From assembly GCF_988243305.1 (NCBI RefSeq), contig NZ_OZ547138.1: a stretch of DNA of 64,000 bases; one strand, written 5' to 3'. The notes beneath the pieces are model-generated. The model worked only from the letters and a program-made list of their open reading frames with translations, did no database searches and was not told where the DNA came from. Position numbers and translations under genes: made by a program. Below, piece after piece: positions 8,777 to 49,505 of this stretch (position 1 is its first letter; each line of letters opens with the position of its first letter). This stretch comes from a plasmid.

Positions 8777-9042
8777 TTTTCCTCCTGTGGCAGGTCAGTC
8801 AAACAACATTATGGCGTGAAGCTTCCGCTTCTTTAATTGTCAGAAGAAGCATATCGTCAGTCATCAGAAGACAAGGGGATGTCTGCAGGAGGGGATGATA
8901 ACAACAGAAGCCTCACGCCGGAATGCGCTTTATGACAACCGGAGAGGACGGATAATCAAAATTGGGACATCCACATCAGCAAACCGCTATTTGCGAAAAA
9001 AAGTCAGCGGAGAGTGGCTGCCGTTGTGGCTGTCCCGGTATT

Positions 9043-9708
9043 TCAGTGTAACAGGTGATTGCTGTGATCTATGCCCCATTCGGCTTTCGGTAAACCTGAA
9101 TACCCCACATGAAGAATGCGTGACAGCATGTTTCTGCCGCTGCCGTTCAGGCTGCATTCGCGTCCGTGCGCGAGTATAAAACCTTCATCCCGGAATATCT
9201 CTTCCACTTCTGAAGATTCGAGGGATGCCGGATGAATTAATGAAAATGCCACCGGTCTGAGCATTCTGCCCGTGGTGGAAAAGGTGTCTCTGGTACTGTT
9301 CAGTTGCAGGATATGACGTTTACCTGTTTGCGCACGGGAAAGTGTCTCACTCAGCAGCTGGTCGCTCCATGCGCACGTGCCAATCTGCCATCCCAGACTC
9401 CTGCACGCGGCAAGAGCCGAGCGGAAGCGGTACAGGTCGTATAATGCTGCGTTATTGCCACTTTCCAGCAGTGATTTCAGGGTGTTTGCTACCGGTATGT
9501 CTGAATTGGTGGCCAGCAGTTTTCGCAGGGTAGTGAACTCTTCAGCCATTCCTCTGAACTCGCGCATCTGACGGGCAGTGTCAAGCCAGTTCAGCAGGTA
9601 ACGCCGGCGACGCCGTTCGTTGTTTATGTTGTCCGGGGCGGTGGAGAGTGCTTCGAGCATATTCTCCAGTAACAGAATGACAGGGTTTTCCTGGGATAGA
9701 ATGGTCAT
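9043..9708 (-). CDS. Hypothetical protein in the position of IncI1 transfer regulator TraC
   Basis: 221-aa ORF directly downstream of the NusG-like traB gene. The assignment is by position only; I do not recognise the sequence. Confidence 0.55.
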   Translation of the reverse strand: MTILSQENPVILLLENMLEALSTAPDNINNERRRRRYLLNWLDTARQMREFRGMAEEFTTLRKLLATNSDIPVANTLKSLLESGNNAALYDLYRFRSALAACRSLGWQIGTCAWSDQLLSETLSRAQTGKRHILQLNSTRDTFSTTGRMLRPVAFSLIHPASLESSEVEEIFRDEGFILAHGRECSLNGSGRNMLSRILHVGYSGLPKAEWGIDHSNHLLH

Positions 9709-11029: not shown

Positions 11030-11100
11030 AAGGAAAACCCCCACTATCTTTCCTCGAACTTTGGCGGGCTCGTGAAAGATAGTAGGGGCGTTCACAGAAT
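11030..11100 (-). ncRNA. inc: Inc antisense RNA (RNAI-type copy-number control), approximate ends
   Basis: It is complementary to the strong leader stem-loop at 11038-11088, whose loop carries GGCG (11063-11066). This lies upstream of repY/repZ, the IncI1/IncB control architecture. Ends were not determined. Confidence 0.5.
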
Positions 11101-11115
11101 ACGGGATAAGTATAT

Positions 11116-11205
11116 ATGAAACCGTACCAGAGATTCAACCCTGTGCAGTGTATAAATACACGGCACAATCGCTCCGCCATAAGCGACAGCTTGTGGCAGG
11201 TCTGA
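11116..11205 (+). CDS. repY: repZ leader peptide RepY (29 aa)
   Basis: ATG at 11116 gives MKPYQRFNPVQCINTRHNRSAISDSLWQV followed by a stop. The 29 codons match the published RepY length, and the stop TGA (11203-11205) overlaps the start region of repZ. Confidence 0.8.
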   Translation: MKPYQRFNPVQCINTRHNRSAISDSLWQV

Positions 11206-37266: not shown

Positions 37267-37619
37267 GTCGCCGCAGGCTCCGCTTTACCCGGCCATGCGG
37301 GGCATGGCCTTGTGGGTTTTCAGTTATGTGGCCTCAGCGTCGTGTGCGGGCTGTGCCGTGCCTCCATCGTAGCCGGGCTTCTGCGGGCGGGTTGCAAGGT
37401 AAGGTGAACCGCTGCGGTCACCCGGTCCCTCCTTCCCGTCTGCCGTGATTTTCCGGTCGTTCACCCGCTCAGATTTCGCGGTCTCACCCTCCAACTCCCG
37501 TCAGCCGTGCGCGTCAGGCTGCGGCTTCCCTTGCGCCCTTGCAACCCTGCAGGTCCGGCAAAGATGGAGGCACGGCACCGCCCGGTGTCGCGGAATATGT
37601 GAACAACGGAGGAAATCCC
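37267..37619. repeat. Family-A hairpin element, copy 1 (ssi/Frpo-like candidate ssDNA promoter)
   Basis: About 353 bp, near-identical to 44215-44568. 37353-37368 pairs perfectly with 37563-37578 (21 bp with 1 mismatch over 37348-37368/37563-37583). It ends at the ATG of the klcA/ardB-like gene. Confidence 0.7.
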
Positions 37620-38045
37620 ATGCAGTATGCGAAACCTGTCACTCTGAACGTTGAAGAGTGCGACCGTCTGTCTTTTCTGCCTTACCTGTTTGGCCTGGAT
37701 TTTCTGTATGCCGAAGCGTCTGTATACGCGCTGGCGAAAAAAATGATGCCGGAATATGAAGGCGGATTCTGGCACTTCATCCGCCTGCCGGACGGTGGCG
37801 GTTACATGATGCCGGATGGCGACCGTTTTCATCTGGTCAACGGTGAAAACTGGTTTGACCGTACCGTGAGTGCTGATGCCGCAGGCATCATTTTGACTTC
37901 CCTTGTGATTAACCGCCAGTTGTGGCTGTACCACGACAGCGGGGATGCAGGGTTGACACACCTGTACAGGATGCGCGATGCGCAGTTGTGGAGCCACATC
38001 GAATTTCACCCCGAATGCAACGCGATTTACGCGGCACTTGACTGA
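37620..38045 (+). CDS. KlcA/ArdB-family antirestriction protein
   Basis: 141 aa: ...RLSFLPYLFGLDFLYAEASVYALAKKMMPEYEGGFWHFIRLPDGGGYMMP... This matches the KlcA/ArdB pattern. The track start at 37539 lies inside the repeat. Confidence 0.75.
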   Translation: MQYAKPVTLNVEECDRLSFLPYLFGLDFLYAEASVYALAKKMMPEYEGGFWHFIRLPDGGGYMMPDGDRFHLVNGENWFDRTVSADAAGIILTSLVINRQLWLYHDSGDAGLTHLYRMRDAQLWSHIEFHPECNAIYAALD

Positions 38046-38905: not shown

Positions 38906-39471
38906 CTTCGGCTCCCGGCTGCCTGGCGGCATCCGGTCGTCAGGCCCGACTCCGACGGGCAGCTGCTGGCGCACCCGCCAGTCTCCGCCGAACCCGCTGG
39001 CGCGGTTTCGGGCTGCCGCTACGGTCCGATGCGTGAAAACCCGGCTTGCAGCGACCGTTCCGGTCGCGCCGCCCCTGTCGCGCCGTGACCTGCGCTCCCT
39101 GCACACCTGACGGTGTGTGAGGAAACTGCGCCTGATGGCGCAGCAGTCCTCCCTCCTGCCGCCACTCCTGCGGCCTGTTTCCCGCTGTGGACTTTCCGGG
39201 GGGCAGACGTAACCCCCTCCCGTTCCATCTGTCCAGGGTGAGATGCACCGGCCACAAAATTTTTAGCCATGAACCCGGCAAAAAATTTTGCGTCCGCCCC
39301 CGGACAGCTGCCCCGTGAGGCGGTAAACGGGCCCCCATCGGAAAGGTCCACTGCGGGGAGAAAACCCTGTGAAGTGGACGGCAGGAGGAGCTTTCGCTCC
39401 TCTGAAGGGGCACATGAACGTCCCGTCGCCGGTATCCGGTTTATCTCACATCTTTCAGTCAGGAGGTTCTT
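38906..39471. repeat. Family-B hairpin element, copy 1 (upstream of ssb)
   Basis: About 566 bp with high similarity to 45251-45800, and its 3' two-thirds to 48281-48653. 39152-39161 pairs with 39379-39388, and 39181-39199 pairs imperfectly with 39339-39358. It ends at the ssb ATG. Confidence 0.7.
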
Positions 39472-39999
39472 ATGAGTGCACGTGGTATCAACAAGGTCAT
39501 CCTCGTCGGGCGTCTGGGCAATGATCCGGAGGTCCGTTACATCCCCAACGGGGGCGCAGTGGCAAACCTGCAGGTGGCCACGTCAGAAAGCTGGCGCGAC
39601 AAACAGACGGGGGAGATGCGGGAGCAGACGGAATGGCACCGCGTGGTGCTGTTCGGCAAGCTCGCGGAAGTGGCAGGTGAATATCTGCGCAAGGGCGCGC
39701 AGGTCTACATCGAGGGGCAACTCCGTACCCGTAGCTGGGAAGATAACGGTATCACCCGTTACGTCACTGAAATTCTTGTTAAGACCACGGGCACCATGCA
39801 GATGCTGGGGAGTGCACCACAGCAGAACGCTCAGGCGCAACCGAAGCCTCAGCAGTACGGCCAGCCACAGAGTGCTGACGCAACGAAAAAAGGGAGCGCG
39901 AAAACGAAAGGCCGTGGACGTAAGGCTGCGCAGCCGGAGCCTCAGCCGCAACCGCCGGAGGGTGAGGATTACTGGTTTTCAGACGATATCCCGTTCTGA
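39472..39999 (+). CDS. ssb: Plasmid single-stranded DNA-binding protein
   Basis: 175 aa. Starts [48 protein letters not shown] and has an acidic tail DDIPF. Confidence 0.95.
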
Positions 40000-40055
40000 A
40001 TGACTGACTGTGAAAACCGCCCCGTCCAGTGCGGGGCATCACCGGAGATATGAGG

Positions 40056-44214: not shown

Positions 44215-44568
44215 GTCGCCGGCGGCTCCGCTTTTACCCGGCCATGCGGGGCATGGCCTTGTGGGTTTTCAGTTATGTGGCCGCCGTGTCGTGTGCGGGC
44301 TGTGCCGTGCCTCCATCGTAGCCGGGCTTCTGCGGGCGGGATGCAAGGTAAGATGAACCGCTGCGGTCACCCGGTCCCTCCTTCCCGTCTGCCGTGATTT
44401 TCCGGTCGTTCACCCGCTCAGATTTCGCGGTCTCACCCTCCAACTCCCGTCAGCCGTGCGCGTCGGGCTGCGGCTTTCCTTGCGCCCTTGCATCCCTGCA
44501 GGCCCGGCAAAGATGGAGGCACGGCACCGCCCGGTGTCGCAGAACATGTGACTATGGAGGATTCGGGA
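44215..44568. repeat. Family-A hairpin element, copy 2 (upstream of ardA)
   Basis: Near-identical to 37267-37619. 44302-44317 pairs perfectly with 44512-44527. It ends at the ardA ATG. Confidence 0.7.
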
Positions 44569-45069
44569 ATGTCTGTTGTTGCACCTGCTGTATACGTTGG
44601 AACCTGGCACAAATACAACTGTGGAAGCATCGCCGGACGCTGGTTTGACCTGACCACGTTTGATGATGAGCGCGACTTTTTCGCCGCCTGCCGTGCTCTT
44701 CACCAGGATGAAGCCGATCCTGAACTGATGTTTCAGGATTATGAGGGATTCCCGGGGAATATGGCCTCTGAATGTCATATCAACTGGGCCTGGGTTGAAG
44801 GCTTCCGCCGGGCACGGGATGAAGGCTGCGAAGAGGCTTATCGTCTCTGGGTGGATGATACCGGTGAGACGGATTTTGACAGCTTCCGCGATGCCTGGTG
44901 GGGCGAGGCTGACAGTGAGGAGGCTTTTGCGGTTGAGTTCGCCAGTGATACCGGCCTGCTGGCTGACGTGCCGGAGACGGTGGCGCTCTATTTTGACTAT
45001 GAGGCGTATGCGCGGGATTTATTCCTGGACTCCTTCACCTTTATTGACGGTCATGTGTTCCGTCGGTGA
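44569..45069 (+). CDS. ardA: Antirestriction protein ArdA (type I R-M inhibitor, DNA mimic)
   Basis: 166 aa starting MSVVAPAVYVGTWHKYNCGSIAGRWFDLTTFDDERDFFAAC. Highly acidic, with a GGAGG SD. The track start at 44488 lies in the repeat. Confidence 0.92.
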   Translation: MSVVAPAVYVGTWHKYNCGSIAGRWFDLTTFDDERDFFAACRALHQDEADPELMFQDYEGFPGNMASECHINWAWVEGFRRARDEGCEEAYRLWVDDTGETDFDSFRDAWWGEADSEEAFAVEFASDTGLLADVPETVALYFDYEAYARDLFLDSFTFIDGHVFRR

Positions 45070-45250: not shown

Positions 45251-45800
45251 CTTCGGCTCCCGGCTGCCTGGCGGCATCCGGTCGTCAGGCCCGACTCCGA
45301 CAGGCAGCTGCTGGCGCACCCGCCAGTCTCCGCCGAACCCGCTGGCGCGGTTTCGGGCTGCCGCTACGGTCCGATGTCTGAAAAACCAGGCTTGCAGCGA
45401 CCGTTCCGGTCGCGCCGCCTCTGTCGCGCCGTGACCTGCGCTCCCTGCACACCTGACGGTGTGTAAGGAAACTGCGCCTGATGGCGCAGTTGTCTGCCCT
45501 TCCGCCGCCACCCCTGCGGCCTGTTTCCCGCTGTGGACTTTCCGGGGGCTGAAGCGGCCACAACACGTGTCAGCCGTCCAGGGGGGAGATGTACCAGCCA
45601 CAAAACTTTTTGCCGCAAGCGTCAAAAACTTTTGCGTCTGCCCCCGGACAACTGCCCCGTGCCGTGGCTGTCGCTGCCCCATCGGAAAGGTCCACTGCGG
45701 GGAGAAACCCCGAAGAAGTGGACGGCAGAAGGGGCTTTCGCCCCTCCGGGGGAGCAACCGGTCGGCCCGGCGACCTGATTCAGCAGAAGGAGACGTTTTC
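45251..45800. repeat. Family-B hairpin element, copy 2
   Basis: Aligns by eye along its whole length with 38906-39471. It ends at the ATG of the unknown 144-aa ORF. Confidence 0.7.
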
Positions 45801-46235
45801 ATGACAGTCAGCAGCACGATTTCCGTTTTTTGCCGCGACGGGGTGTTCCGTACCGTTTACTGCCACCTGCACGGTGAGCCGACCTGGAACGGTCGCATCC
45901 TGCATACCCACTATGCCACCGGTCAGCAGGCCGAAGCCCTGGTTGAACACGGTGATATCCGTTGCCTCGGTCCCCGTTGCGACAAACCCGCCGGGCATAC
46001 GCTTCAGAACCCGGTGGACGGTGTGACGGCTTATTACGGACGTGACAGTGGTTTCCGGATGGACAGTGAGGCGCGTGAGTACCGTTCTTTCAGGGAGGCC
46101 ATCGCCACGGAAAGCACTGAAGAGGTGCGCTTCCATTATGTGTTCATCGACGGCTACTGGAAGGTGATGTACCGCACGCCGGAAGGCTGGAAGATGAAGT
46201 CGCTTGCGCTGGCACTGCGCCGCTGTCCGAAATGA
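45801..46235 (+). CDS. Hypothetical 144-aa protein directly behind a family-B element
   Basis: ATG at 45801 after an AAGGAGA SD. Starts MTVSSTISVFCRDGVFRTVYCHLHGEPTWNGRIL. The track start at 45459 lies inside the repeat and is rejected. Confidence 0.65.
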   Translation: MTVSSTISVFCRDGVFRTVYCHLHGEPTWNGRILHTHYATGQQAEALVEHGDIRCLGPRCDKPAGHTLQNPVDGVTAYYGRDSGFRMDSEAREYRSFREAIATESTEEVRFHYVFIDGYWKVMYRTPEGWKMKSLALALRRCPK

Positions 46236-46328
46236 AAAAAAGGCAGGGCGATAAACCCTGCCTCTCTCCGCCGGCGCTTCCCCGCCAGGAAGCCCGGCAT
46301 CTCAATCACTATCTATGGAGATTATGCC

Positions 46329-46595
46329 ATGAGACCATCAATTATCTTCGCAACCGCCGAGTATGTAAAGCGTCTGCGTGAAGAGTGCCTGCGGGAGAAT
46401 AAACCCCTGCACCGCCATACCCGCTTCAGACGTCAGGAGCTGGCACAGGATGAGATTAACCCGGACGTCCTGGCGATGAGCGGTCATATCGCCAGACGCT
46501 GCAGTGAGCAGAAGCGGGTGCGTATCCCCGCTATGAAAGCCAGCGAATGGGGCCACCTGCTCCGCGCGCTTGAAATTGAACGGGTCTGCCACTGA
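46329..46595 (+). CDS. Hypothetical 88-aa basic protein
   Basis: Preceded by a GGAG SD. Arg-rich. Unknown function. Confidence 0.5.
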   Translation: MRPSIIFATAEYVKRLREECLRENKPLHRHTRFRRQELAQDEINPDVLAMSGHIARRCSEQKRVRIPAMKASEWGHLLRALEIERVCH

Positions 46596-46659: not shown

Positions 46660-47562
46660 GTGAGTAAGAAGAAAAACACCACAACGCCCACGCCGCATGA
46701 TGCCGCGTTCCGGTCGTTCCTGGCGAATCCCGACGTCGCCAGAGATTTTCTGGAACTGCATCTTCCGGCGGAGTACCGGCAGTTGTGCGACCTGTCCACG
46801 CTGAAGCTGGAACCCGCCACCTTTGTAGAGCCGGACCTGCATCAGTACGCCAGCGATATCCTCTGGAGCGTGAAAACCACCGGGGGTGAAGACGGCTATG
46901 TTTATACGCTCATCGAGCACCAGAGCACCGAAAATCTGTACATGCCTTTTCGCATGTTACGTTACAGTGTGGCGGCGATGCAGAGACATCTGGAGCAGCA
47001 CAAAACGTTGCCACTGGTGATTCCGGTGCTGTTCTATCACGGTGAGCGCAGCCCGTACCCGTACAGCATGAACTGGCTGGACTGTTTTGAGAATCCGGCA
47101 CTTGCGGCTAAAATATACACAAAGCCGTTTCCGCTGGTTGATATCACTGTCGTTGATGACAATGAAATCATGAATCATCGCCGGATGGCCGCACTGACGC
47201 TGCTGATGAAGCATATCCGCCATCGTGACATGATGGAGCTGCTGGACAAACTCCCGAAGGTCATGGTGGAAATTTCAGACGAGCAGGTGCGTGTTCTGAT
47301 TCATTACATCGTTAACGCAGGGGACTCTGTATCACCGGAATTTATGCGGGCGCTGGCTGAGCGTCTGCCGCAGCATGAGGATAAACTGATGACTATCGCA
47401 GAACGTCTTGAGCAAAAAGGTCGCCAGGAGGGCAGGATGGAAGGTGCGCTTGAAAAAGCCCTGGCTATTGCGTGCCAGCTTCAGAAAATGGGGATGACGC
47501 CGGAGCAGATTAAGCAGGCTACCGGGCTTTCCGATGACGAACTGAAGAAAATCACTCACTGA
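46660..47562 (+). CDS. Rpn-family (YhgA-like, PD-(D/E)XK) recombination-promoting nuclease
   Basis: 300 aa from a GTG after a GGAGGA SD. Contains HDAAFRSFL…, DILWSVK…, YVYTLIEHQS and PLVIPVLFYHG motifs typical of Rpn/transposase_31 proteins. It also has the characteristic C-terminal MTIAERLEQKGRQEG… tail. Confidence 0.8.
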   Translation: MSKKKNTTTPTPHDAAFRSFLANPDVARDFLELHLPAEYRQLCDLSTLKLEPATFVEPDLHQYASDILWSVKTTGGEDGYVYTLIEHQSTENLYMPFRMLRYSVAAMQRHLEQHKTLPLVIPVLFYHGERSPYPYSMNWLDCFENPALAAKIYTKPFPLVDITVVDDNEIMNHRRMAALTLLMKHIRHRDMMELLDKLPKVMVEISDEQVRVLIHYIVNAGDSVSPEFMRALAERLPQHEDKLMTIAERLEQKGRQEGRMEGALEKALAIACQLQKMGMTPEQIKQATGLSDDELKKITH

Positions 47563-47574
47563 TGAGAGTATCAC

Positions 47575-47599
47575 AGCCCGGCAAAATGCCGGGCTTTTT
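47575..47599 (+). terminator. Rho-independent terminator after rpn
   Basis: agcccggca-aaa-tgccgggct followed by TTTT. Confidence 0.7.
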
Positions 47600-47624
47600 A
47601 TCCAGCAGGAGCAGAGCAAACAGT

Positions 47625-47795
47625 ATGACGCTTGCAGAACGTCTTATACAGAAAGGTTTTGAAAAAGGCGCTCTTGAAGTGGCGCGGGAAATAGCCTGTC
47701 GGCTTCGGGATATGGGCTGGCCGCCGAAACGGATTCAGGAGGCTACCGGACTTTCCGGTGAAGAACTGAAAAAACTGTTTCCTGATGAGCAGTAG
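47625..47795 (+). CDS. Free-standing 56-aa paralog of the Rpn C-terminal tail
   Basis: MTLAERLIQKGFEKGALEVAREIACRLRDMGWPPKRIQEATGLSGEELKKLF aligns with the Rpn tail MTIAERLEQKGRQEG..EKALAIACQLQKMGMTPEQIKQATGLSDDELKKI. AGGAG lies 13 nt upstream. Confidence 0.5.
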   Translation: MTLAERLIQKGFEKGALEVAREIACRLRDMGWPPKRIQEATGLSGEELKKLFPDEQ

Positions 47796-47825: not shown

Positions 47826-48077
47826 TCACACATCCTCTGCCGTTTCCCCCAGTTCATTTTCCAGACGCCTGATGATATCTGCCTTACGCATCCCCTGCAT
47901 GTGAGGCAGCAGGTCACGGACTGAAAGAGCCTGGGTGGTCCTCCAGACGGTGACGTCCACCTGTTCCGCATTTTCCCAGGCGTGCCATGTTCTCTGCGTC
48001 ACGCCAAATTCTCTGGCCGCTTTTTCGCGTGACCAGAGCATGCTTTTTCGCCAGATTCGCAGTTCCCAGTCGGTCAT
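47826..48077 (-). CDS. Small HTH DNA-binding protein (XRE-like)
   Basis: 83 aa. REKAAREFGVTQRTWHAWEN is a helix-turn-helix. Twin palindromic operators lie upstream. Confidence 0.7.
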   Translation of the reverse strand: MTDWELRIWRKSMLWSREKAAREFGVTQRTWHAWENAEQVDVTVWRTTQALSVRDLLPHMQGMRKADIIRRLENELGETAEDV

Positions 48078-48092
48078 AAAATACCTTTGAAA

Positions 48093-48178
48093 AAGTGAAA
48101 AAACTTCACTTTATTTTATCACCATAATCACCAAATCAGCGCGAAAAATAAGTGTGAAAAAGTGAAGAAATTTCACTT
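48093..48178. promoter_or_regulatory. Two 19-bp palindromes AAGTGAA-N5-TTCACTT (putative operators of the HTH gene)
   Basis: Copies at 48093-48111 and 48160-48178, 67 bp centre-to-centre. They bracket an AT-rich promoter-like stretch immediately upstream of the 47826-48077 gene. Confidence 0.65.
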
Positions 48179-48280
48179 TTTTTAATTGCAGATGTCGTGC
48201 TGTTTTCTCTGTTTTCACCTGTGCGGGAGTGGTGTGCCAGTGACCACCACATGCCATTGTTGTGCCGTCGTTTTTCTTCA

Positions 48281-48653
48281 GTCGCGCCGGATGCGGCGCT
48301 CCCTGCACACCTGACGGTGTGTAAGGCCACTGCGCCTGATGGCGCAGCTGTCTCTGCCTGTCTGCCGCCGCACTGCGGCCTGTTCTCCGCAGACGGACTT
48401 TCCGGGGGAACATACACGACCACATCCCGTTTCAGTTATCCAGGGGAGAGATGTACCAGCCACAAAACTTTTTGCCGCAGGCGTCAAAAACTTTTGCGTC
48501 TGCCCCCGGACAACTGCCCCGTGACGTGGTGAGCATCCCCCGTCGGAAAGGTCCACTGCGGGGAAATCCCCGAAGACCCGGACGGCAGAAGGAGCTTCGC
48601 TCCTCCGGGAAATGACCTGGCTGACCCGGCAGTCGTGACGATGAGGAGACAAT
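48281..48653. repeat. Family-B hairpin element, copy 3 (lacks the first ~170 bp)
   Basis: Aligns with the 3' two-thirds of copies 1 and 2 from gtcgcgccg…ccctgcacacctgacggtgtgt onward. It ends at the start of the 283-aa ORF. Confidence 0.65.
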
Positions 48654-49505
48654 GTGATGAATCAGACTTTACCCACTGCTGACCTGAATACTGCCGGCAC
48701 GACAGATATTATTCCGTCTGTGGCCATCGACCGCATTATCGCGCAGCGTAACGAAGGTATTGCACTGTTCATGCAGGCGATGGAATGCCTGGCGACAGCA
48801 CGCAGGATTCTGCTCGATGCTTCTGGTGACATTTTTCTCTACGGGTTTGAAGACTGCGTGACTGACTCTGTTCGATGCATGGATAAACCGGAAGAAGCAA
48901 AAAAGAATATCACCCGTCTTGCCGACCGTAAAATCTGGGACCGCCTGATGGCGGATACGGGGATGTACACCTTCATGAGTTCATGCCAGCGTGATGAGTG
49001 GAACAGCCAGCTGATGAGCGACACCTGTCCTGAAATCACCCTGGACAATGTGCTGGCAACTTTTCGCCATCTGAATGCCAGCAAGATGCAGACATTTGAA
49101 CAGAGACTGATTGATGTCTACCGGAAATTGTCATGGGATTACAGAACCAATAATCCCTGCCGTCTGGGCAAGAAAATCATTATTGAAAACCTGCTGTACC
49201 GCTGGAGTAACGGGCGTGTGACGCTGGACTGCAGCGGACGGGAGGCACTGGATGACCTGGTACGTCCGTTTTATCTGCTGGAGGGACGCAACGTTCCTGA
49301 CTTCAGGAACAGCATCGGGGCGCAGTATGGTGAATATCTCGGGAACGGCGATAATGTCGGTAAGCTGTTAGAAGGGGAATATTTTACGGTGCGTGGCTAC
49401 CAGAAAGGGACCGTACACATTGTCTTTAAGCGTCCTGACCTTGTTGAAAAACTGAATGATATTATTGCACGGCATTATCCTGGTGCATTGCCGCCACGAG
49501 TCTGA
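48654..49505 (+). CDS. Hypothetical 283-aa leading-region protein
   Basis: GTG at 48654 or ATG at 48657, after a GAGGAG SD. No motif I can name with confidence. Confidence 0.65.
   Translation: MMNQTLPTADLNTAGTTDIIPSVAIDRIIAQRNEGIALFMQAMECLATARRILLDASGDIFLYGFEDCVTDSVRCMDKPEEAKKNITRLADRKIWDRLMADTGMYTFMSSCQRDEWNSQLMSDTCPEITLDNVLATFRHLNASKMQTFEQRLIDVYRKLSWDYRTNNPCRLGKKIIIENLLYRWSNGRVTLDCSGREALDDLVRPFYLLEGRNVPDFRNSIGAQYGEYLGNGDNVGKLLEGEYFTVRGYQKGTVHIVFKRPDLVEKLNDIIARHYPGALPPRV

Follow-up and report, generated by a model that had tools for sequence, protein, structure and literature searches.

A described counterpart of the locus analyzed here is the leading region of plasmid pESBL-EA11 (hereafter pESBL). 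Six operons of this region are induced about 500-fold at most at 15 min, according to RNA sequencing of transconjugants after elimination of the donor; three of the six are driven by the elements ssi1–3, which make up promoter class 1, this class shows the highest transcription rates among the three promoter classes of that plasmid, and the start sites of all six promoters were mapped by 5′ rapid amplification of cDNA ends (PMC12672017). We analyzed one gene of the corresponding region, ygcA, on a stretch of plasmid DNA of 64,000 nucleotides (RefSeq assembly GCF_988243305.1, contig NZ_OZ547138.1); this whole stretch is called the window below, and coordinates refer to it unless another sequence is named. 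The product, YgcA, resembles ArdA, KlcA/ArdB, and PsiB, the early proteins of the same plasmid that have been characterized, in orientation, in transient early expression from a single-stranded-DNA (ssDNA) promoter and in small size, but is related to them neither in sequence nor in fold. That the gene is ygcA, that it occupies an early slot, and that it is not the killing gene pndC whose name it often bears is very probable; for a role of YgcA in plasmid establishment or in countering host defense, the reading that we favor, we estimate a rough probability of 0.4.

The gene, called ygcA in R64-style annotation and so named in plasmid pN11, corresponds to Hp16 (O3K_25917) of pESBL and encodes a soluble protein of ~16 kDa. 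The original prediction, made from the sequence alone, had described an open reading frame (ORF) of 144 codons with an AAGGAGA Shine–Dalgarno sequence directly after ardA, and the sequence, the ORF list, and the position of ardA as the immediate upstream gene all agree with it. A longer frame of 258 codons, which starts at GTG 45459 and crosses the upstream repeat, is spurious: the same methionine begins all 214 distant homologs, although the extended frame is stored in some databases as a protein of 251 residues (P0001). The ratio of nonsynonymous to synonymous substitution rates (dN/dS) among IncI ygcA alleles is 0.04–0.19, which denotes purifying selection; because of this ratio, of 1983 matches among cluster representatives and of a structure model with a predicted local distance difference test score (pLDDT) of 96.5, ygcA is a genuine protein gene and no chance ORF.

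The 1.6 kb around ygcA are 100% identical to IncI-gamma/K1 plasmids and 98–99.9% identical to IncK2/Z and other IncI-complex plasmids, and the gene order of the leading region is that of the R64 type: a klcA-like gene, DUF1380, ssb, DUF905, a parB-like gene, psiB, psiA, ygaA, ardA, and ygcA, followed by ygdA, ygdB (encoding an Rpn-like nuclease), ygeA (− strand), ygfB (DUF4942), yggA (− strand), nikA, and nikB. The early genes all lie on the + strand and point toward nikA/nikB; the − strand is therefore taken to be the transferred one, with its 5′ end leading from the origin of transfer (oriT, between 49.9 and 50.2 kb) toward lower coordinates.

In front of ygcA lies the second of three copies of a repeat, called family B in the original prediction, each of which precedes a gene (ssb, ygcA, and the DUF4942 gene); in blocks, copy 2 is 94–97% identical to copy 1 and 88–91% identical to copy 3. 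The arrangement of ygcA behind copy 2 is indeed that of ssb behind copy 1; the claim that the ORF starts at the last base of the repeat holds approximately, as the similarity between copies 1 and 2 fades ~20–25 nt before the ATG. The − strand of 45400–45790, folded as DNA, forms one long hairpin with a free energy (dG) of −123.3 kcal/mol; 100 shuffled sequences averaged −82.7 kcal/mol (standard deviation 5.1; z −7.9), and none of them folded as well. Copy 2 is furthermore 94% identical to the element upstream of Hp16, the pESBL ortholog (65546–65980 of that plasmid), whose protein is identical to YgcA at 142 of 144 residues. The repeat is the Frpo/ssi class-1 ssDNA promoter of IncI-complex plasmids, copy 2 being ssi2. 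The expectation that YgcA is among the first plasmid proteins made in a new host is thus well supported, by the ssi2 hairpin, by the agreement with pESBL (99% for the protein, 94% for the element), and by the published transient induction of the operons behind ssi1–3 of pESBL, with start sites within the hairpins.

A second repeat family of 300 nt is present at 37284–37583 and 44233–44532 (97% identical), in front of the klcA-like anti-restriction gene (37620–38045) and of ardA; it fits the class 2 ssDNA promoters of pESBL (PMC12672017).

Three names for this gene exist in the catalogs and one of them, judged from sequence comparison, is wrong: many GenBank, RefSeq, and UniRef records call ygcA "post-segregation killing protein PndC," a label that we find unsupported. 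The toxin pndA of the Hok family is a hydrophobic peptide of about 50 residues with a ...SLC.LR... motif, overlapped by a translationally coupled mok-like frame. That ygcA should be PndC, the mok-like frame of such a pnd (hok/sok-type) post-segregation killing locus, is almost certainly wrong: the name in databases and papers is the sole likeness between the two and the sole point in favor. Two motif expressions modeled on Hok and PndA sequences, run over all six frames of the window, revealed no hok/pndA-like peptide (a crude screen, without a hidden Markov model), and the other ORFs within 45801–46235 are unrelated. No Sok or PndB RNA was found either: an Rfam search of the whole window at the gathering threshold returned PK-repZ only, and a scan of 36–51 kb at E ≤ 1 gave no Sok-like match. 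The true pndC of IncI1 plasmids adjoins trbA, as in the plasmid multilocus sequence typing locus trbA–pndC (PMC2887853), whereas ygcA is flanked by ardA and ygdA and belongs to the leading side of oriT. YgcA is moreover a globular fold of 144 residues with thousands of phage homologs, such as a mok-type leader frame would not possess.

The label has nevertheless been carried into the literature on leading regions (Benz & Hall 2023, PNAS, Fig. 7 and Dataset S3). In Supplementary Table 1 of Samuel et al. 2024 (Nature), "PndC" is number 23 of the families enriched in leading regions, with 2203 members at a median position of 7 from oriT in the orientation of the T-strand, and is filed as "Hok/Sok TA related"; this family appears to be ygcA, the match being one of label and size, not of sequence. 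The wrong name thus appears to have placed ygcA under toxin–antitoxin systems in that survey and not among the uncharacterized candidates. "YgdA," the name of the next gene product, is listed in the same table among the names of family 1 (YdaB/YdfB/YgdA), the largest leading-region family, an assignment made by name only.

The original prediction recognized no family for this protein, and this holds for the curated libraries: YgcA has no match in Pfam, NCBIfam, or PADLOC, and a Pfam search with 74 family members gave matches at noise level only, to no curated anti-defense, defense, or enzyme family. Homologs are nonetheless numerous. When 1.84 billion cluster representatives were scanned exhaustively with phmmer, the 1983 matches mentioned above were obtained at E ≤ 1e-3, among them 257 at E ≤ 1e-10, and a profile search of 90% clusters retrieved 2952 family clusters at E ≤ 1e-5. 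YgcA matches PHROG 1987 (E 5.3e-21, residues 1–126) and PHROG 23089 (E 4.9e-19), and 55 phage records encode homologs, including Rak2-like jumbo phages (GAP32, BF, CBB, fHe-Yen9-04), KVP40-like vibriophages, and T4-like cyanophages such as S-PM2. The phage proteins of the two PHROGs (Cronobacter phage GAP32 K4F737, Yersinia phage fHe-Yen9-04 g356, and the "T4-like GC 66" of S-PM2) are 27–45% identical to YgcA by tblastn and are predicted to fold alike (Foldseek E 6e-14 and 1e-12; query TM-score 0.85 at most), and the domain begins at residue 1 throughout; unlike ygcA, their genes have no ssDNA promoter in front.

Homologs also occur on 163 Enterococcus plasmids. The protein of an E. faecalis conjugative plasmid (WP_002395037.1, 182 residues) is a true homolog of YgcA (hhalign probability 98.8%, E 6e-17), although it belongs to a Gram-positive host, aligns well in its N-terminal half alone and shows no evident R81–D82 motif. 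At the one Enterococcus locus that was inspected, the homolog of 182 residues lies between a DpnD/PcfM gene and the genes for PcfK, of the known anti-CRISPR family AcrIIA9, and PcfJ, in the vicinity of ssb, a methyltransferase, a thermonuclease, and a relaxase. Other homologs were found on an integrase-bearing element with SprT-like and PcfJ genes, on a contig with DUF932 and a ProQ-like gene, and in clusters of small ORFs of phage early type, and the contigs of eight sampled family proteins included no clearly nonmobile chromosomal context. The family thus appears to be large, unnamed, and confined to mobile elements.

Some of these contexts would also suit a DNA-processing helper in establishment, which, partnered by YgdA and the Rpn-like nuclease, would handle the single strand as it comes in, for instance in its protection, priming, complementary-strand synthesis, or recircularization. 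The genes ygcA, ygdA, and that of the Rpn PD-(D/E)XK nuclease are co-oriented with short gaps, and the trio has been kept together between insertion-sequence pieces in Salmonella contigs; the Enterococcus homolog stands among ssb, thermonuclease, and methyltransferase genes; and among 20 longer family members checked for fusions against Pfam, one has a WYL_2/Sm-like domain at its C-terminus (E 1e-16) and another shows a weak, sub-threshold gp32-like match. We still regard such a role as rather unlikely. The families of Rpn and YgdA are reported to be larger than that of YgcA (2601 and 4739 members vs. 2203), so the link is probably not obligatory; the YgcA family is abundant in double-stranded-DNA phages, so its function is not specific to ssDNA entry; and transposon insertions in the gene did not reduce transfer (PMC4288162).

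The AlphaFold2 model of YgcA, built from an alignment of 74 sequences, is confident (pLDDT as above, predicted TM-score 0.90) and shows an alpha/beta domain that opens with two strands, continues through two helices and a long conserved loop region, and closes with a three-stranded sheet at the C-terminus. The structure comparison proposed with the original prediction leads to no solved fold and no characterized family: the model has no match among the folds in the Protein Data Bank (PDB), nor does the PDB hold a match to YgcA by sequence or by profile, and structural matches in BFVD, at E 6e-14 to 1e-4, are every one to uncharacterized proteins.

Residue conservation was computed over 214 members less than 60% identical to YgcA. 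Two histidines, H22 and H66, are invariant (100%); T3, R81, and D82 are each conserved in 99% of members, Y20 in 98%, S54 in 96%, D24 and R83 in 95%, S5 in 93%, and Y26 in 90%, while position 2 is small (S, A, G, or T) in all. This set resembles a site for catalysis or ligand binding of which the N-terminus is part, provided that the residues cluster in space, as we assume. The common IncI allele, to which YgcA of the window belongs, retains S5, H22, H66, R81, and D82 but departs from the family at five positions of at least 90% conservation (T3V, D24H, Y26E, S54R, and R83S), at all of which the phage members keep the canonical residue. By homology YgcA is a family member, but a derived one, with probably a changed specificity, or with binding in place of catalysis. 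That YgcA acts on a small molecule or a nucleic acid through this conserved site is a tentative idea, and we would sooner doubt it than not.

Several more specific guesses at the activity were dropped. A DNA mimic of the ArdA/Ocr type is ruled out by the slightly basic isoelectric point of YgcA (8.3, with 17 acidic and 19 basic residues; family median 5.2) and by the lack of a match to ArdA in Pfam. A 2H-phosphoesterase resembling Acb1 was set aside, as no paired H-x-T/S-x motifs were seen by eye and Pfam gave no match, and so was a metal site made of the four non-conserved cysteines, C21 being the only conserved one. The argument in the original prediction that a small Cys/His-containing protein looks like an anti-defense protein is accordingly a weak one: H22 and H66 are conserved, as is C21 in 81% of members, but the other cysteines are not.

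PLSDB holds 2016 plasmids with ygcA, almost all of them conjugative and all of them from Enterobacteriaceae; nearly all of these copies are 95–100% identical. Among 5426 complete E. coli genomes, 1308 have the gene. Two further allele classes were found. One (P0017) is ~82% identical to YgcA. The other (P0054), a protein of 143 residues that is 52% identical to YgcA, occupies the same slot between ardA and ygdA in at least 26 contigs of E. coli assemblies (at 9001–9432 in loci L014–L016) and retains the family-canonical T3, D24, and Y26. Compared with L014 and L016, the block 45800–46245 of the window is 45–63% identical at the nucleotide level, whereas the flanking ardA, ssi2, ygdA, and rpn are 95–100% identical; in L016 this block is the only sizeable stretch below 70% identity from ssb to nikB. 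The derived residues of the common IncI allele and the 52%-identical allele in the same slot are new to this analysis.

An allele cassette whose bounds are those of the ORF is what diversifying or frequency-dependent selection on a specificity determinant would be expected to leave. Such polymorphism at a fixed locus is also typical of specificity determinants in conflicts among mobile elements, and early genes can be costly or host-specific; YgcA might thus serve in competition between mobile elements or in host manipulation, aimed at resident plasmids, prophages, or the host stress response and not at any dedicated defense system. This we consider improbable, as a family of such wide taxonomic range speaks against a narrow, competitor-specific target.

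Two natural in-frame chimeras (P0050 and P0051) were found on other plasmids, one joining the N-terminus of the DUF1380 protein to residues 5–56 of YgcA, in 150 contigs, and one joining ArdA(1–117) to YgcA(99–144). These natural deletions, the replacement of five family-conserved residues in the common allele, and the dispensability of the gene in a transposon-insertion sequencing (TnSeq) screen (PMC4288162) would be in keeping with a decayed remnant of a phage-type enzyme, carried as dispensable cargo and conserved by linkage. We hold this to be very unlikely: the dN/dS values point to purifying selection, about 2000 plasmids keep an intact frame of 144 codons at 95–100% identity, and the gene, which has a strong Shine–Dalgarno sequence, comes first after an early promoter that is among the strongest.

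The reading that we favor, an establishment or anti-defense role, would work as follows. The − strand would enter the recipient 5′ first from oriT, and its ssi2 segment would fold into a hairpin serving the host RNA polymerase as promoter; ygcA, then ygdA and the gene for the Rpn-like nuclease, would be transiently expressed before the complementary strand is made and would fall silent afterwards, a timing that has been shown for pESBL. YgcA would be an establishment or counter-defense effector drawn from a mobile-element family, in IncI plasmids a derived form with a remodeled site, and the two alleles in one slot would reflect selection exerted by some factor that varies among hosts or competitors, as is suggested by a 52%-identical allele between near-identical flanks. 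Members of the family occur in phages and plasmids whose hosts are Gram-negative, Gram-positive, or cyanobacterial; this range favors a universal target, for instance a nucleotide-derived molecule or a nucleic acid, over a lineage-specific host protein. In its boldest form, the proposal would make YgcA and its family of ~3000 clusters a new class of counter-defense or establishment proteins with a fold absent from the PDB, in which an N-terminal Thr/Ser-His-Asp-His-Arg site binds or destroys a universal immune signal or a nucleic-acid intermediate and the two IncI alleles are specificity variants of an arms race; this is speculative and, taken as a whole, rather unlikely.

The evidence for an anti-defense function is circumstantial, consisting of the confinement to mobile elements, the PcfK/AcrIIA9 neighbor in Enterococcus plasmids, and the allele-cassette polymorphism, which together make it plausible. 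A number of points weigh against it. The TnSeq screen of pESBL found Hp16 dispensable for transfer to E. coli K-12 (values of 0.76 for non-essential, 0.24 for maintenance, and 0.00 for transfer; PMC4288162); it should be noted that ardA, psiB, and the methyltransferase gene were likewise dispensable in this screen (PMC4288162), and a K-12 recipient is therefore no test of counter-defense. YgcA shows no similarity to anything characterized, the neighborhood among small phage ORFs is weak evidence, and the predicted site presupposes the spatial clustering of its residues. With five conserved residues replaced, an activity found for the family may not apply to the atypical IncI allele, and the allele cassette could have come from neutral recombination with a diverged lineage. 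The chimeras record deletions in the leading region that destroyed ygcA, so the gene can be lost. A literature search, finally, found no paper testing the function of ygcA, its sole match for "ygcA" with IncI1 being a list of IncK2 core genes that includes it, and a search for WP_000218864 or pcfL found nothing.

Set against the original prediction, the position of the gene, its regulation, and its absence from curated families are borne out, whereas the anti-defense function is not established; the absence of any phenotype upon deletion, which was to count against that function if seen across recipient backgrounds, has been observed in part, with transposon insertions and in the laboratory recipient E. 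coli K-12 alone (PMC4288162).

The features of the locus are collected in table 1.

Table 1. Features of the ygcA locus and its class-1 ssDNA promoters in the window
Feature	Position	Strand	Basis and remarks
Class-1 ssDNA promoter, copy 1 (ssi3)	38906–39460 (approx.)	−	Precedes ssb (39472–39999)
ardA	44569–45069	+	Pfam ArdA, E 3e-29; own class-2 upstream repeat at 44233–44532
Class-1 ssDNA promoter, copy 2 (ssi2, Frpo-like)	45251–45780 (approx.)	−	Precedes ygcA; would act as a hairpin of the transferred strand
Shine–Dalgarno sequence AAGGAGA	45787–45793	+	Spacer of 7 nt to the ygcA ATG at 45801; read from the sequence
ygcA	45801–46235	+	ATG 45801–45803, TGA 46233–46235, 144 aa; first cistron behind ssi2
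GC-rich hairpin GGCAGGG-CGATAAA-CCCTGCC	46242–46262		Just past the ygcA stop codon; A-run before it (+ strand), equal to a U-run after it (− strand); from the sequence and folds of both strands
ygdA (88 aa)	46329–46595	+	ORF; named in pN11; next gene, same orientation; probably cotranscribed with ygcA
ygdB, Rpn/YhgA-like PD-(D/E)XK nuclease	46660–47562	+	Pfam Transposase_31, E 1e-78; start as annotated on an identical plasmid; putative operon with ygcA
77-aa ORF, paralog of the Rpn C-terminal domain	47562–47795	+	BLASTP, 56% identity over 55 aa to Rpn residues 263–317, E 7e-16
Class-1 ssDNA promoter, copy 3 (ssi1)	48200–48650 (approx.)	−	Precedes the DUF4942 gene (48657–49505)

Behind ygcA, an antisense RNA of ~100 nt is possibly encoded on the − strand of 46236–46369. 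A sigma-70-like site reads from 46369 to 46341 on this strand (TTTACA, a spacer of 17 nt, GATAAT; 10 of 12 matches), the − strand transcript 46335–46228 folds into three hairpins (dG −54.5 kcal/mol, z −5.3), and the candidate ends in GGCAGGG...CCCTGCC followed by a U-run, a canonical intrinsic terminator. Such an RNA would pair with the ribosome-binding site and start codon of ygdA and might shut this gene off once the plasmid is established, and only then, because its + strand template is absent until the complementary strand has been made. The region is 97% conserved across four IncI plasmids, which are too alike for covariation to be assessed.

Further downstream, the junction between the Rpn gene and the ORF of 77 codons (~47580–47700) differs among plasmids; the pair resembles the long/short toxin–antitoxin arrangement of the E. 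coli Rpn proteins. In Salmonella contigs L018 and L019, a ygcA–ygdA–rpn trio with the 82% allele forms a fragment between pieces of ISL3 transposase genes, beside a PAPS-reductase/DUF3440 gene pair. Between ygeA and ssi1, at 48078–48186, lie two AT-rich direct repeats of 42 nt that are 83% identical; the second contains a perfect 10-nt inverted repeat (AAAAAGTGAA / TTCACTTTTT) and the first, by eye, a similar palindrome. They are situated just upstream of the − strand helix–turn–helix gene ygeA (47826–48077) and are possibly operator sites.

Elsewhere in the window, an ORF of 175 codons with a GTG start (39476–40003, +) was rejected as an out-of-frame shadow of ssb, the true ssb being 39472–39999 (ATGAGTGCACGTGGT..., MSARGINKV). 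The Rfam element PK-repZ, the pseudoknot of the repZ leader, is located at 11030–11180 (+, 173.9 bits); it is a replication-control element of the IncI complex and confirms the replicon type.

The gene is carried by about a quarter of complete E. coli genomes and by about 2000 sequenced plasmids, many of which spread extended-spectrum beta-lactamase and other resistance genes, and the early operon that contains it ranks among the most strongly induced in the leading region of IncI plasmids. Its merit is to be well suited for experiments, and it is not a discovery by itself: a very large family of phages and plasmids for which no fold has been solved, together with sharply bounded allele cassettes, makes the gene well defined and cheap to work on. 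If the counter-defense role is true, ygcA would link plasmid establishment to the early-gene biology of phages and could be considered as a target where the spread of resistance plasmids is to be blocked.

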